Shown: positions 41,312-48,375, counted from the stretch's first letter. The stretch is DNA of 64,000 nt from Candidatus Moraniibacteriota bacterium (GCA_963743885.1 CAVURJ010000001.1:76949-140948), one strand, 5' to 3'. Made by a program: numbers and translations. Notes: generated by a model from the sequence alone, not told the origin.

Positions 41312-41395
41312 GCCCAGGTGGCGGAATTGGTATACGCGCTAGCTTGAGGTGCTAGTTCTCGCAAGGGATTGGAGGTTCGAGTCCTCTCCTGGGCA
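41312..41395 (+). tRNA. tRNA-Leu (anticodon GAG)
   Basis: Acceptor GCCCAGG/CCTGGGC, anticodon stem CTAGC/GCTAG with loop TTGAGGT, long variable arm, T-arm GGAGGTTCGAGTCCTCT. Confidence 0.8.
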
Positions 41396-41750
41396 CAAGT
41401 GAATGAAGTGAACGCCGTGGCCAGAGTAAGCCAACTGCTTGGCTTACGAGGGAGGCGAGAAAGCCGGAGCGATATCCACGCGAGTGGACCGCGAGGCGGG
41501 GTCGACAGCTCGCATAAGCGAGACTGGTGACCGAGTCCTCTCCTAGGCACAAAATGAACAAAGTGAATGGATTGTGCCCCGGAAGCAGGCCAACTCTTGC
41601 CTACCGGCAGGCAGGGCTTGGCCTGCGGAGGACGAGAAAGCCGCAGTGCTGCGTGAGTTTCCGCCGAAGGCGGAAGGCGAGCGCCACGAGGCGGGGTCGC
41701 GAGAAATTTCCGTCAGGAAATTTACTTGTGACCGAGTCTCTCGTTTCTAC
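41396..41750 (+). repeat. Two tandem roughly 165-190-bp related units, each ending in a copy of the tRNA-Leu(GAG) 3' end (…cgagtcctctcctaggcaca; …gtgaccgagtctctcg)
   Basis: Unit A 41396..41560 and unit B 41561..41750 share blocks (aagccaactgcttggctt / caggccaa...ttggcctg hairpins; gaggcgagaaagccggagcg / gaggacgagaaagccgcagtg; cgaggcggggtcg). Unit B contains ttgcctaccggcaggcagg. Confidence 0.7.
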
Positions 41751-41824
41751 GCACGCTTAGCTCAGTTGGTTAGAGCACCTCGTTTACACCGAGGGGGTCC
41801 AAGGTTCGAATCCTTGAGCGTGCA
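41751..41824 (+). tRNA. tRNA-Val (anticodon TAC)
   Basis: GCACGCT acceptor, anticodon stem-loop CCTCG TTTACAC CGAGG, T-arm GGTTCGAATCC. Confidence 0.85.
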
Positions 41825-41842
41825 CAGTACCTATAAAATATG

Positions 41843-42160
41843 CCGAGGTAGCTCAGTGGTAGAGCAGAGGACTGATTTTCGGTCACTCCTGTAGTAATAC
41901 AGGATGTATGCATCGGGTGAACTCGAGGAAACCTACGTTTCTAGCAATAGGAATATGGCAATCTCGATCCAAGCCTCAGTGGGATAAAGTTCTGAGGAAG
42001 GTGTAGAGACTAGCAGGTGAGCCCCAACAATAATCCTGCAACAGCGCCCGACTTCGCACTCCTTTCGAGGAACGAAGATGAAATAGTCCGATCCTTGGGG
42101 AAACCCAAGACAAATAAGAGGAAAATCCTTGTGTCGGCAGTTCAATCCTGCCCCTCGGCA
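41843..42160 (+). tRNA. tRNA-Phe (anticodon GAA) interrupted by a 246-nt group I intron in the anticodon loop
   Basis: 5' exon 41843..41874 (GCCGAGG acceptor, D-arm, GAGGA-CT) and 3' exon 42121..42160 (GAAAATCCTT...GGCAGTTCAATCCTGCC CCTCGGC A). The acceptor stem is perfectly complementary across 300 nt. The spliced loop reads CTGAAAA. Confidence 0.7.
41875..42120 (+). mobile_element. Group I intron in tRNA-Phe
   Basis: Internal guide GGTC pairs with exon GACU with a U.G at the splice site. P7-forming R/S-like elements are gtagagactagcagg and agatgaaatagtccgatcc. The intron ends in G (omega-G) at 42120. Confidence 0.6.
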
Positions 42161-42228
42161 CAGAAGACAGTTAGCAGTTAACAAATAGCAGACAACGGGA
42201 CTGTAGCTCAGTGGTAGAGCGCGCGGCT

Positions 42229-42848
42229 CAAGAAGTTCATTTCAAATTGTGTTGCGGGTTGTGTAATTCAGCATGACAATTGTTGCAAACAAGCAGACAC
42301 TTGTTCACTTCTTCGTCAATATGGGATTGCTTCCGATTTGAAAGGGATCTCATATCGAGTTGAAAGCTTTTTTCTTTCGGATCAAGGTGATGGAAAGTCA
42401 GTGCGGCAAGGTTTTTGTTATAGCCGCAAACTGAACATTTCCCACCGAATCGTTTCAAAAGCGACATCTTTCTCTCCAAGCCCCTGGCTTGTTGGGATTG
42501 ATACGATTGATGAAGCTGATTCTTACAAAAGGGCGAGCAAAAGACTGTTTGTCTGCCAGACAATTCCTTGCTACACACGACACAAGTTATGAGTTTTTTC
42601 ATAACTTTATGATAACACAAAATGAATGGATCTAGCAGGGCTGCTTAGGAAGTAATTCCTAAGTGATACTCTGTCAAACTCGGGGAAATCTAAACGGTGA
42701 GCAGTTTCATCCGCATGACAATCCCGAGCCAAGCCTCATCCATCAGGTGAGGAAGGTGTAGAGACTAGACGGCAGACACCCGTAATTCGGGTGAAGGGAT
42801 AGTCCAGCTCACAAATTTGAAAGAAGTTGCGAAAGCAATAGTGAGAAG
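42229..42848 (+). mobile_element. Group I intron in tRNA(CAT) carrying an antisense HNH endonuclease ORF
   Basis: The 3' part (ccaagcctcatccatcaggtgaggaaggtgtagagactagacgg ... gggatagtccagctcac) is homologous to the tRNA-Phe intron core. The intron ends with G at 42848. The ORF 42237..42620 lies on the opposite strand. Confidence 0.6.
42237..42620 (-). CDS. HNH homing endonuclease (intron-encoded, antisense to host tRNA)
   Basis: 127 aa; CSVCGYNKNLAALTFHHLDPKEKSF ... LLVCNNCHAELHN is a classic HNH/zinc-finger motif. Low GC. Confidence 0.7.
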   Translation of the reverse strand: MCYHKVMKKLITCVVCSKELSGRQTVFCSPFCKNQLHQSYQSQQARGLERKMSLLKRFGGKCSVCGYNKNLAALTFHHLDPKEKSFQLDMRSLSNRKQSHIDEEVNKCLLVCNNCHAELHNPQHNLK

Positions 42849-42947
42849 CATAACCGCTTGGTCGTTGGTCCGATTCCAACCAGTCCCACAAAAACCCCTC
42901 CCCCATTGACCTGGGCGGGTTTTTTTGCCAAAATGTCCTAGTGAGCT

Positions 42948-43022
42948 GCGGGTATCGTATAGCGGCTATTATGTGACCTTGCCAAGGTCAAGATACGGGT
43001 TCGACTCCCGTTACCCGCTCCA
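42948..43022 (+). tRNA. tRNA-Gly (anticodon GCC), CCA encoded
   Basis: GCGGGTA acceptor, anticodon stem-loop TGACC TTGCCAA GGTCA, T-arm ACGGGTTCGACTCCCGT, 3' TACCCGC T CCA. Confidence 0.85.
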
Positions 43023-46497: not shown

Positions 46498-46517
46498 AAA
46501 CGTCACCCATCCAAATT

Positions 46518-47495
46518 TTATGCGATAGCGAACCCCCGCTCCGTCTCTATGATACTACCAGGAATCTCAAAGCCACTCGCGAGACGATGTCCGCCGCCAC
46601 CAAACTGCGCTGCAATCGCCGACACATCCACACCGTGCTGCTCCATCGAACGCAAGCTCGCGCGCACGATGCCCCCATCACGTTCCGAGAGCACCATCGC
46701 GAACTTCGCATCCGGCACCGCCGAGAGAATAGACGCGACCTGATAGATATCATCCACCGATGCCTGGGCATCCTCGACATCCCTCTTTGTCACCGCCGTC
46801 ACAAGCATACCATTCTCCGGATTGAGCTTCGCCTTCTCAAATGCCTTCCCCCACAACTTGAGGGCTGCGATATTCTGATGTGCGAAAATCGTCTGCGAAA
46901 TCTTGGTGAGCGGCGCGCCGCGTTTCATGAGATCCGATGCGATCTCCATCACGCGCGGCGACAGACTCCCATGCTGGAAGCCGCCGGTATCGAAGATGAT
47001 CCCCATGAGGAGCTTCGTCGCCATCGACTTCGAGATGTTCGCATCGACTGAACGAAGGAAAAGATAGACGAGTTCGGAGCTCGACGAGTACGCGGTATCG
47101 ATCACGATCACATCACCGCGCACCGATATGTCGGGATGATGATCGATGAGCACAATCGCCTGATCCTCAGAGAATCGTCCGACGATCGTATCAAATCCCC
47201 TATCGACACTATCGCATGCGATCACGGCATCGTAGCTCGCGAGATCGAGCTGGTCAGGATGAAAGAATGTTTCCTTCGCAAGCGATGAGATCACATCCGG
47301 AAACGGATCAAGACAGGCGACATCAGCATGTTTGCCACTCAACCGAATATATTCCGCCAGCGCAGTATTCGATCCGACCGCATCAGGGTCTGGCCGATTA
47401 TGCGCCACAAGGAGTACGCGCTCGGATTTCGAGATGATGTATTCAATGGTGCGAAACTCTTTCTCGAAACTCTGCATACGTATCGGATACTTCAA
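46518..47495 (-). CDS. nrnA: DHH-family phosphoesterase (NrnA-like oligoribonuclease / pAp phosphatase)
   Basis: 325 aa; VAHNRPDPDAVGS (DHH motif I), DHHP, and C-terminal DHHA1 GGGGH. Confidence 0.75.
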   Translation of the reverse strand: MKYPIRMQSFEKEFRTIEYIISKSERVLLVAHNRPDPDAVGSNTALAEYIRLSGKHADVACLDPFPDVISSLAKETFFHPDQLDLASYDAVIACDSVDRGFDTIVGRFSEDQAIVLIDHHPDISVRGDVIVIDTAYSSSSELVYLFLRSVDANISKSMATKLLMGIIFDTGGFQHGSLSPRVMEIASDLMKRGAPLTKISQTIFAHQNIAALKLWGKAFEKAKLNPENGMLVTAVTKRDVEDAQASVDDIYQVASILSAVPDAKFAMVLSERDGGIVRASLRSMEQHGVDVSAIAAQFGGGGHRLASGFEIPGSIIETERGFAIA

Positions 47496-47827
47496 AATAT
47501 TTCTTTGAGAAGCTTCTCGACTTTATCAGCCTCTTCTTCGGTCCGATCGATCTCAAAAGAGAGCTTTGGCATCGGCCGCATGTAGAGCTTACTGTAAAGC
47601 TTCCTCTGGATTCCAGGAAGTTCCTTCTTGAGCGTCTCAGTAACATAGTGGATTTCTGTCTCAGGGAAAACACTGACGAACATACGAGTGTAGCGGAGAT
47701 CCTTCGATGTGTCAACCTTCGCGATCGTCGCAAAGACGCCCGGCTTGAAGGAAAGCTCCTTTTCCATGATTTCCGCCAGATGTTTGCGGATCAGCTCATT
47801 GACCTTGGTGACGCGGAGTGATGACAT
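47492..47827 (-). CDS. rbfA: Ribosome-binding factor A
   Basis: 111 aa; RVTKVNELIRKHLAEIM and KH-like fold motifs. Confidence 0.8.
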   Translation of the reverse strand: MSSLRVTKVNELIRKHLAEIMEKELSFKPGVFATIAKVDTSKDLRYTRMFVSVFPETEIHYVTETLKKELPGIQRKLYSKLYMRPMPKLSFEIDRTEEEADKVEKLLKEIF

Positions 47828-48055
47828 ATATGTGGATAACAGTGTACAAACGTCTTTTTTGGCTTATATTGTGCCCTCGAGAGGAATCGGACCTCTATTT
47901 ACTCGTTAGGAGTGAGTCGTTCTATCCATTGAACTACAAGGGCGAAGACGCATACTACCACGTCTCATTCATCTTATCAATGCTTACGTGTTAAGTAAAA
48001 CAAAAAATCCCCAAATAAGGAGATTTTCGCGACAACGCCTGATTTTCCGAAAACA

Positions 48056-48072
48056 GTGTGGACCATGCCGGA
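48056..48072 (-). repeat. 17-nt direct repeat of the tRNA-Ala 3' end (gtgtggaccatgccgga), 220 bp 3' of the tRNA
   Basis: Identical to 48292..48308. The intervening segment carries cctgcctaccggcaggcagg. Confidence 0.75.
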
Positions 48073-48294
48073 ACACTCACTACGCCCCTTCGATAAACTC
48101 GGGGTGCGTTCTATAGGGCTTCCCTGCCCGAAGTGCTACATCGTTGCAGGCGGGCGCCCTCTAGTCCTCTCCGCCCAGCTGGCGGATCGGTCACCCCGAA
48201 CGGGAAACTCCCGTTTCCTCGACTCGATTCGAGTCGAAGCGGGCCGACCCCTGCCTACCGGCAGGCAGGCCTTCCCTATTCGACCCCGTCAGTG

Positions 48295-48367
48295 TGGACC
48301 ATGCCGGATTCGAACCGGCTACCTCTTGCATGCCATGCAAGCGCTCTACCAATTGAGCTAATGGCCC
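48295..48367 (-). tRNA. tRNA-Ala (anticodon GGC)
   Basis: Reverse complement GGGCCAT TA GCTCAATTGGTAGAGC G CTTGC ATGGCAT GCAAG AGGTA GCCGGTTCGAATCCGGC ATGGTCC A; the G3.U70 Ala identity pair is present. Confidence 0.85.
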
Positions 48368-48375
48368 GTTATTGG

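Follow-up and report, generated by a model that had tools for sequence, protein, structure and literature searches.

This study concerns a set of short inserts that follow tRNA genes in a 64,000-nt stretch of DNA from Candidatus Moraniibacteriota bacterium (GCA_963743885.1, CAVURJ010000001.1:76949-140948), here called the window; positions are counted from its first letter. It is a stretch of housekeeping chromosome in which dnaA and dnaN lie at 59.8-62.7 kb, and its order rluD-rplS-tRNA-Leu(GAG)-Val(TAC)-Phe(GAA)-Met(CAT)-Gly(GCC)...Cys-Leu(TAA) shows synteny to loci that carry the label Moraniibacteriota or Moranbacteria. ARAGORN called eight tRNA genes and Rfam identified two more, each interrupted by a group I intron, giving a total of ten. 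Four of the ten are central to what follows: tRNA-Leu(GAG) (41312-41396, plus strand; ARAGORN, and 55.5 bits with the Rfam tRNA model), tRNA-Gly(GCC), in which CCA is encoded (42948-43022, plus strand; ARAGORN and Rfam), tRNA-Ala(GGC) (48294-48367, minus strand; ARAGORN and Rfam) and tRNA-Val(TAC) (41751-41825, plus strand; ARAGORN).

The first three of these genes are each followed by a second copy of their own 3' end. The repeat at tRNA-Leu pairs 41378-41398 with 41532-41552 (20 of 21 positions), that at tRNA-Gly pairs 43003-43022 with 43158-43177 (a perfect 20 nt) and that at tRNA-Ala, on the minus strand, pairs 48290-48308 with 48054-48072 (a perfect 19 nt). In a shuffle test the final 17 nt of each of the ten tRNAs were compared with the 400 nt downstream, using 2000 shuffles. 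Significant tail copies occur only at Leu (16/17), Gly (17/17) and Ala (15/17), and none of the 2000 shuffles equalled the observed match (p<0.0005 each). The initial annotation of this DNA had reported direct repeats of tRNA 3' ends at three tRNA genes, and both the repeats and the test bear it out. It had also described two degenerating copies behind tRNA-Leu, which holds in part: the nearer copy matches at 20 of 21 positions, and the farther one (CGAGTCTCTCGTTTCTAC, ~41731-41750) is too degenerate to be significant alone. Support for the latter comes from its position, because it terminates a second full element recognized with 82 bits by a covariance model. The inserts at Leu, Gly and Ala measure 110-240 nt; the earlier range of 135-220 nt is corrected by the Ala insert, which is 240 nt long, and by the Gly insert, whose functional part spans ~112 nt and is preceded by a terminator. 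That the inserts lack open reading frames (ORFs) is upheld: no credible ORF was found in them, and the ORF calls gave just overlapping shadow ORFs.

Four elements, U1 to U4, account for the inserts. U1 (41397-41552, plus strand) adjoins tRNA-Leu, which is the host gene of a U1/U2 array, and is made up of a trailer-like leader, a GCCAACTGCTTGGC hairpin (41429-41446), a three-way-junction core (41449-41543) and the tail copy, DR1 (41532-41552). U2 (41553-41750, plus strand) is distal to tRNA-Leu; a palindrome (41596-41615) is nested in the loop of its 5' hairpin, the core occupies 41626-41744, and the degenerate tail (~41731-41750) abuts tRNA-Val. The two have common blocks in the same order, namely the GCCAACT hairpin, CGAGAAAGCCG, CGAGGCGGGGTCG and GTGACCGAGTC, and the hairpins between these blocks are alike in position and different in sequence. 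Both are matched by CM R1, a covariance model built from the alignment described below (U1, 70.4 bits, E=2e-17; U2, 82.4 bits, E=1e-20).

U3 (43066-43177, plus strand) is organized around an inverted repeat: an anti-tail, AGTGGTAACGGGAG (43068-43081), is complementary to the tail copy at 43158-43177, and in the minimum-free-energy structure the two form a 14-bp closing helix that encloses two hairpins. Its junction reads GAGAA / GGGCGC..GCGCCC / AGG / CTTTTTG..CAAAAAG / GA, and it is the third-best match to CM R1 in the window (E=0.27), through closing helix and junction only. A terminator-like hairpin, T1 (43030-43058, plus strand), lies between tRNA-Gly and U3, and a terminator, T2 (43181-43214, plus strand), lies 3' of U3. 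At locus L006, where tRNA-Gly has an empty site, the ortholog of T2 stands directly after the tRNA; judged against that site, T1 belongs to the inserted DNA. U4 (48054-48293, minus strand) contains the blocks GGGGTCGG..., GGGGTGACCGA, CTAGAGGGCG and CCTATAGAACGC, a nested palindrome (48250-48269) and the tail copy (48054-48072), with a terminator on its 3' side (48003-48028, minus strand). Each of the four inserts has a far more stable fold than its shuffled controls (z=-5.1, -5.0, -3.7 and -2.9 for U1 to U4, respectively). There are at least three structural types: U1 and U2 are type 1a, U3 is type 1b, and U4 is type 2. The inserts are not debris; they are members of module families.

The extent of the type 1a family was examined in the contigs of one genome per species, which were scanned for GAGAAAGCC-N(20-50)-GAGGCGGGGTC. 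This gave at least 119 loci (loci are designated by L and a number throughout), and the family counts that follow (73, 72, 71 and 166) rest on the matches listed in this core-block scan. Among at least 121 listed matches, 73 also carry a block that had no part in the selection, GTGACCGA, 30-110 nt downstream. These 73 come from metagenome-assembled genomes (MAGs) labelled Patescibacteria, Moraniibacteriota, Paceibacterota, Parcubacteria, Taylorbacteria, Nomurabacteria and 'Saccharibacteria', together with three labelled Elusimicrobia; the remaining matches, from Proteobacteria and others, are by our own estimate close to the chance expectation for 20 fixed bases in ~600 Gb. Most of the 73 have a tRNA gene 20-85 nt upstream on the same strand. 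Among the matches listed, the sequence after GTGAC copies the upstream tRNA from position -19 (C56, in the T loop) to the discriminator or beyond; at most of the tRNA-linked loci the copy begins exactly at -19, and the repeat is usually 19-22 nt long, reaching 33-58 nt in some. Nearly all copies at the loci examined stand directly 3' of a tRNA and on its strand, a few being more distant or having no tRNA nearby; apart from the MAGs labelled Elusimicrobia, the genomes belong to Patescibacteria, ultra-small bacteria of the candidate phyla radiation (CPR).

The host tRNAs of type 1a are Leu, Ser, Val, Tyr, Ala, Gln, Arg, Phe, Gly, Ile, Trp, Pro and Asp; with core variants found behind Lys and Glu the total comes to at least 15 tRNA specificities. 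CM R1 scores range across loci from 45 to 96 bits. A 13-nt tail copy is present within 600 nt of 50 of the 166 tRNAs in scan-matched loci, 38 of these copies belonging to type 1a (the type used to select the loci) and 12 to other kinds. Rfam 15 has no family that matches the inserts at E<=5 or canonical members at E<=1, and both permissive and gathering scans of inserts and canonical members returned only tRNAs and two group I introns. Neither ARAGORN nor the Rfam tRNA model RF00005 (E<=1-5) detects a cloverleaf in the inserts, whose only tRNA-like parts are the tail and a T-stem-like helix. Likenesses noticed by eye to hammerhead, twister, 5S rRNA, RNase P P4 and ZTP were rejected on junction strand lengths, misfit to consensus and the lack of an Rfam match; a similarity of the U1 leader to 5S rRNA (17/20) was set aside, other members being without it. 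A full-text literature search found no relevant description of the module family.

Three observations on individual loci may be added. Canonical type 1a elements occur at L028, L085 and L106, in gut or rumen MAGs labelled Elusimicrobium or Elusimicrobiaceae by their depositors; should these labels be correct, the family extends beyond Patescibacteria, which would suggest horizontal spread. At L018 (2340-2443) an orphan type 1a element follows rplS and ends in an intact Leu-type tail, without a tRNA-Leu. In the related L052, two ORFs (1616-2862), IS3-family transposases by eye from their N-terminal residues, lie between tRNA-Leu(GAG) and the type 1a element.

Beyond what the initial annotation described, the inserts fold as a unit that, in type 1a, is covarying and strand-specific, with the tail copy as one strand of its closing helix. 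An alignment of 71 type 1a sequences, from which CM R1 was built, shows a purine-rich three-way junction (GAGAAA / GG / GA) with two variable hairpins. The closing helix, P_T, has 7 bp and pairs a T5'-like segment with N59-N65 of the tail copy; it leads through J1 (GAGAAA) to Pa, which comprises GCC/GGC, a covarying 2-bp step and a variable hairpin, and then through J2 (GG) to P3 (GGUCG.../...UGACC) and J3 (GA). The 3' strand of the closing helix is the copy of the neighboring tRNA, including T-loop positions 56-59, the T stem and the 3' strand of the acceptor, to the discriminator; its 5' strand is a complementary 'anti-tail' within the module. Across the 71 sequences 87.8% of cells pair, compared with 34-43% when partners are slid by 1-3 columns, and double-change cells number 292 versus 99 ± 9 in shuffles, a value that none of 500 shuffles reaches. 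P_T covaries at six of its seven pairs. One position of P3 is G·U in 69 of the 71 sequences and another in 24 of the 71; the conserved G·U pairs mean that the type 1a fold exists on the tRNA-sense strand only. Compensatory changes and strand-specific G·U pairs together support a structured RNA in type 1a; for types 1b and 2 few sequences are available.

The 5' strand of P_T is not a copy of the tRNA T5' strand, because the pair at its outer end is broken in most cases and loop bases N59 and N60 contribute two additional pairs (AC with GT, AT with AT). Some members have a clear complement to the acceptor side, which often precedes a conserved CAACUGCUUG hairpin; examples are L009, with 10 bp, L016, L028 and L086. 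An acceptor-like 5' helix was considered as a defining feature of the family and rejected: it barely exceeds the cross-locus control and is a subfamily trait.

The other two types also recur. U3 shares the topology of type 1a, with different helices, and has a relative of ~85% identity in a Moranbacteria MAG (L093). At L081 (6063-6510), 3.3 tandem copies of type 1b with a period of 135 nt and 99% identity stand behind tRNA-Ser(TGA), a sign that the element was amplified recently through unequal recombination between its tail repeats. The U4 blocks GGGGTCGG, GGGGTGACCGA, CTAGAGGGCG and CCTATAGA(A/G)CGC recur in elements that follow tRNA-Gly(GCC) in L077 and L113 and that each end in the tail of the local tRNA. 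An arrangement termed 'type 3' was observed in the Ala->Arg spacer of L125, where the 3' half of tRNA-Ala is duplicated from the variable region onward (AAGAGGT..CCGGTTC) and the copy carries a 19-nt GC hairpin between C56 and G57 of the T loop and then the tail; it may be a minimal or ancestral form of the module.

Orthologous tRNAs were compared across related genomes. Eighty orthologous loci (49-73% identity) were fetched by the DHH protein beside tRNA-Arg, irrespective of elements, and contain 209 tRNAs; a tail copy was counted as intact at 13/15 or better. Intact copies follow Gly(GCC) in 6 of 14 cases, Val(TAC) and Phe in 2 of 13 each, Ala(GGC) in 2 of 21, Leu(GAG) in 1 of 12 and Leu(TAA) in 2 of 32; there are none behind Cys (0/31), Arg(CCT) (0/25), Val(GAC) (0/13) or Met (0/11). 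Between Ala and Arg, 350 nt in the window, the spacer is 7-18 nt in 6 of 21 orthologous loci, and between Leu and Val, 354 nt in the window, it is 5-64 nt in 9 of 12. Between Val and Phe the window itself is empty, with 16 nt before the next tRNA, as in 7 of 13 loci with 3-25 nt; in L125 and L120 the same spacer measures 175 and 231 nt, respectively, and holds a type 1a element with a perfect repeat. In L130 the post-repeat spacer of filled genomes is joined straight to tRNA-Val. Empty sites in related genomes, which had been proposed as a check, are therefore found at Ala->Arg, at Gly (L006) and at Val, the last being empty here and filled elsewhere. The modules are discrete insertion/deletion polymorphisms with exact boundaries at the repeat.

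Occupancy also varies in kind, different module types occupying the same orthologous tRNA. tRNA-Gly(GCC) is empty in L006, bears type 1b in the window and type 2 in L077 and L113; tRNA-Val(TAC), empty in the window, carries type 1a in L006, L077, L098, L113, L120 and L125. In arrays the copy nearest the tRNA has the best tail. U1, for example, lies between tRNA-Leu and U2 and has the better tail of the two, and at L093 tRNA-Glu is followed by a type 1a variant with a good tail and then by type 1b with a decayed one. P3 of U2 is identical to that of the Leu element in L113, and the palindrome-bearing U2 hairpin is found again in a truncated remnant in L006: U2 is the ancestral Leu element and U1 an additional copy. 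Neighboring copies exchange cores: the Leu and Val elements of L077 have 100% identical cores and have kept their own 5' parts, and the variable hairpins of the L034 (Leu) and L113 (Val) elements show 98% identity. We infer from these cases gene conversion between copies, bounded by the conserved blocks.

The initial annotation had noted that two of the inserts carry the same hairpin, and they do: the CCTGCCTRCCGGYAGGCAGG palindrome is present at 41596-41615 (with one mismatch) and 48250-48269. As a mark of an element family it fails. The window has a third copy, CCTGCCTGCCGGTAGGCAGG (27524-27543), where 0.01 copies are expected by chance, and this one sits at the tip of an unrelated long intergenic hairpin; the palindrome is not specific to the inserts, because the third copy lies far from any tRNA. 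In U2 and L006 it interrupts the CAACT|GCTTG hairpin within the loop, whereas U1 and other members have this hairpin without an interruption. Its 16-nt core occurs at 12 of the 199 loci examined, with as many as four copies at a single locus. The palindrome is a separate REP-like (repetitive extragenic palindromic) repeat that nests in hairpin loops, and not a signature of the modules. It resembles REPs and bacterial interspersed mosaic elements in being a perfect palindrome, short and rich in GC, that is scattered through intergenic DNA and in some genomes reaches several copies per locus; unlike them it nests in the loops of other hairpins in Patescibacteria, and no RAYT-like gene was seen here.

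Two further observations concern this palindrome. The form TGCCTRCCGGYAGGCA is dispersed in several Patescibacteria lineages, with up to four copies in 14.5 kb of L146. The long hairpin that carries the third window copy is itself an intergenic repeat of ~170 nt (CCGGCnAGATGTCTTTTTnAGAAAAAGAAA ... TTTCTTTTT..CAAAAAGAGTTTCT) with two copies, at 27440-27620 and 46340-46490; only the former has the CCTGCC..GGCAGG palindrome at its tip, the sister at 46.4 kb being without it.

The modules were also placed relative to transcription signals. No terminator lies within Leu-U1-U2-Val, U4 is located between tRNA-Ala and its terminator, and U3 is located between two terminators, directly after the tRNA-Gly unit; a promoter-like site (42906-42934) is found by tRNA-Gly(GCC). 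Because they stand within or right after tRNA transcription units, the modules appear to be positioned for co-transcription with, or read-through from, the tRNA.

What, then, is the nature of the modules? We put it at slightly better than an even chance that they are non-autonomous insertion elements of the tRNA 3' end that depend on a helper in trans and whose folded RNA is the selected payload. Entry would take place at the tRNA 3' end, by recombination between the tail copy of a module and a tRNA gene; a crossover in or beside the conserved T loop would regenerate an intact tRNA and displace the old tail distally. The machinery could be supplied in trans, or general recombination could act instead. 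Unequal recombination between repeats would then produce arrays and precise losses, and gene conversion between copies would homogenize cores. The folded RNA would be kept by selection as payload, candidate roles being a tRNA-mimic processing or stability signal, a protein-binding platform and a recombination cofactor. An unlikely extension of this scheme is that the modules are programmable mobile elements of a novel, RNA-structured kind, that the anti-tail is a guide that chooses the tRNA 3' end in an RNA-directed insertion system, that the junction is a platform for a trans-acting recombinase or reverse transcriptase (RT), or is itself catalytic, and that retargeting rewrites guide and tail together.

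Several results weigh against mobility. Pfam finds no integrase, recombinase or RT among the ~45 ORFs of the window, and clustering of 1168 neighboring ORFs (within 3 kb) from 72 listed family loci gave no recurrent one; the only recurrent neighbors near these loci are housekeeping synteny (L19, RluD and RecG-like). A DEDD recombinase (IS110-type) or RT is likewise absent nearby, the inserts have no Rfam intron match, and the group I introns of the window sit in other tRNAs and not in the inserts. Among 2.9 million viral contigs, none matches the type 1a pattern. The tyrosine or serine integrase genes that were to be sought alongside the repeats thus did not appear in the window ORFs or recurrently near the 72 listed loci; phage or plasmid carriage was rejected as a candidate on the viral-contig result. 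In addition, the order rplS-tRNA-Leu-element is conserved across distant lineages (12 loci among the matches listed), which is consistent with a host-useful RNA that has been retained vertically for a long time. As proof of retargeting, near-identical cores at different tRNAs were considered and discarded: gene conversion, seen between neighboring copies (L077; L034/L113), can explain the same core at different tRNAs, and such cores are therefore no proof of transposition. The acceptor-side anti-tail is clear in a subset only, own tails giving 6.1 and cross-controls 5.7 of 8. Empty sites could be losses by recombination between the repeats and not sites that were never filled, and covariation alone may accommodate a folded single-stranded DNA intermediate.

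If the modules are immobile, the chief alternative is a host-functional trailer RNA, a vertically inherited part of the tRNA operon whose tail is kept by conversion and which is lost via the repeats. Its helix, a mimic of tRNA, and the junction domain would act together as a signal for processing, stability or regulation, or else as an RNA that binds protein. We regard this as rather unlikely, yet it is the alternative with the most in its favor. Strong purifying selection on the junction, with compensatory changes, extends across phylum-level lineages; the modules are located inside tRNA transcription units; rplS-tRNA-Leu-element synteny persists in the 12 listed loci; the closing helix tracks changes in the tRNA T stem (CAAGG/CCTTG in L006 versus GAGGG/CCCTC in L098); and the anti-tail also complements the real tRNA tail, so that an alternative pairing is possible. 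A host function is harder to reconcile with the orthologous loci, where most tRNAs lack a module (intact repeats at 2/21 Ala and 1/12 Leu), for which reason we consider modules dispensable, and where different types stand at the same tRNA. Heterogeneous arrays with a polarity of decay, decayed or truncated copies (the U2 tail, the L006 remnant and the L018 orphan) and the presence of the family in MAGs labelled Elusimicrobia argue in the same direction. Tandem partial tRNA pseudogenes, functionless and immobile 3'-half duplications whose T loop has been expanded by nested GC-rich hairpins, are very unlikely to be the whole explanation. L125, with its tRNA-Ala 3' half and 19-nt hairpin in the T loop, fits this reading; all types retain G57-A58-N59-N60 of the T loop before the tail, and palindromes demonstrably nest in hairpin loops in this genome. 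Independent decay of tRNAs is rejected because it cannot yield one conserved core behind 15 tRNA specificities, and the type 1a core is kept in sequence and structure behind these, across phyla. Moreover, the 5' strand of the closing helix complements N59-N64 and is no copy of the tRNA T5' strand, the Rfam tRNA model does not match the elements, and CM scores of 45-96 bits across loci contradict non-homologous cores.

A duplicated tRNA 3' end also brings integrases to mind, and the inserts might be scars, either attL plus attR of a cargo-deleted prophage or integrative and conjugative element (ICE), or an attP-only minicircle integrated by a phage integrase. From its start in the T loop the duplication runs in the 3' direction for a varying length (19-58 nt), a pattern that Williams is said to have described in 2002 for tRNA-targeting tyrosine integrases with T-loop crossover; arrays have the newest unit beside the tRNA, and insert size is near that of a minimal attP. 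We nevertheless think scars highly improbable. The same complete unit with the same boundaries is present at more than 70 listed loci with no cargo or integrase, one core serves at least 15 tRNA tails whereas an attP serves one tRNA, and viral contigs contain no match. Covariation and conserved G·U pairs bespeak a folded single strand and not protein-binding arms, and the T5'-like half-site lies ~100 nt from the T-loop remnant. The recurrence of a complete conserved unit without cargo at over 70 listed loci equally speaks against the earlier suggestion that the inserts are deletion remnants of larger elements. Prophage scars and partial tRNA duplicates explain parts of the data only, and not one core behind fifteen specificities across phyla. 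The other earlier suggestion, a family of miniature non-autonomous elements, survives in that ORF-less families are tied to tRNA 3' ends; the integrase it invoked was found neither in the window nor recurrently near the elements.

Comparison with known systems places the modules, read as insertion elements, closest to several and within none. They resemble tRNA-targeting integrative elements (prophages and ICEs with T-loop class tyrosine integrases) in the repeat of the tRNA from T loop to 3' end, sometimes beyond, in the intact tRNA that remains, in the stacking of units behind one tRNA and in the empty and filled sites among relatives. They differ in having no integrase in or near the element and no cargo, in having one core behind at least 15 specificities where an integrative element has one type per tRNA, and in a tail that pairs with an internal complement. 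With cis-mobilizable elements, CIMEs among them, and miniature inverted-repeat transposable elements (MITEs) they have in common that they are small, ORF-less, multi-copy and presumably trans-mobilized. MITEs, however, have terminal inverted repeats and a target duplication of fixed length, and the modules have neither, their repeat varying from 19 to 58 nt; CIMEs have a parent element with the same ends, whereas none is identifiable for the modules, which conserve a structured core and not ends. Integron attC sites are also gene-less, strand-specific and conserved in structure more than in sequence, with an end-closed stem and a variable center; unlike them the modules have no R/L box consensus and no IntI nearby, are attached to a tRNA tail and have a conserved three-way junction at their center.

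RNA systems provide further parallels. The t-elements of plant mitochondria, mascRNA, bacterial YrlA and viral tRNA-like structures all have an acceptor/T-arm-like helix on a non-tRNA RNA and are transcribed beside or with other RNAs; by analogy, the module helix could recruit RNase P, RNase Z or the CCA-adding enzyme. In contrast to these mimics, the module helix copies the adjacent tRNA, its discriminator is often paired, and there is no D or anticodon arm. In the exon-binding and intron-binding sites (EBS-IBS) of group II introns and in the IS110 bridge RNA, as in the modules, an internal segment complements a flanking target and one scaffold serves many targets, but no ribozyme or recombinase partner was found for the modules, their complement pairs in cis with the copy of the target, and size and fold differ.

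If the modules are mobile, they would be the smallest tRNA-targeting insertion elements described, and also the first to conserve a folded RNA that incorporates a copy of the target; they belong to a bacterial radiation in which mobile elements and RNA have hardly been explored. If they are host RNAs, they constitute a widespread new class of tRNA-mimicking RNA in the tRNA operons of Patescibacteria. Either way they account for many unannotated GC-rich tRNA spacers in genomes of the candidate phyla radiation, their insertion polymorphisms are useful for strain typing, and a defined covariance model is now in hand.

Some minor features of the window remain to be recorded. Nine consecutive large ORFs (205-413 aa) at 54-10993 have no Pfam match at E<=1e-5. 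A tentative decayed element lies behind tRNA-Val(GAC) (53330-53494, minus strand), with a trailer-like leader, a GC-rich hairpin and a tail-like ATCCAGTATCACCCACC that matches the tRNA-Val(GAC) tail at 11 of 17 positions, a value non-significant by itself (p ~0.23). A free-standing LAGLIDADG_3 ORF (44807-45514, plus strand) is located between the tRNA clusters of the window, and, separately, an ORF shared by five family loci close to their tRNAs resembles LAGLIDADG proteins by eye in a single motif; no positional link of these ORFs to modules was seen. The two tRNA genes missed by ARAGORN, tRNA-Phe(GAA) (41842-42160, plus strand) and a tRNA with CAT anticodon (42197-42888, plus strand), each have a group I intron (RF00028; 57 and 63 bits, respectively) in the anticodon loop. 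The second intron contains a minus-strand ORF (42237-42620, 127 aa) with no Pfam match. In L006 and L113 the same two tRNA genes also carry introns, and in L077 and L098 they have none.

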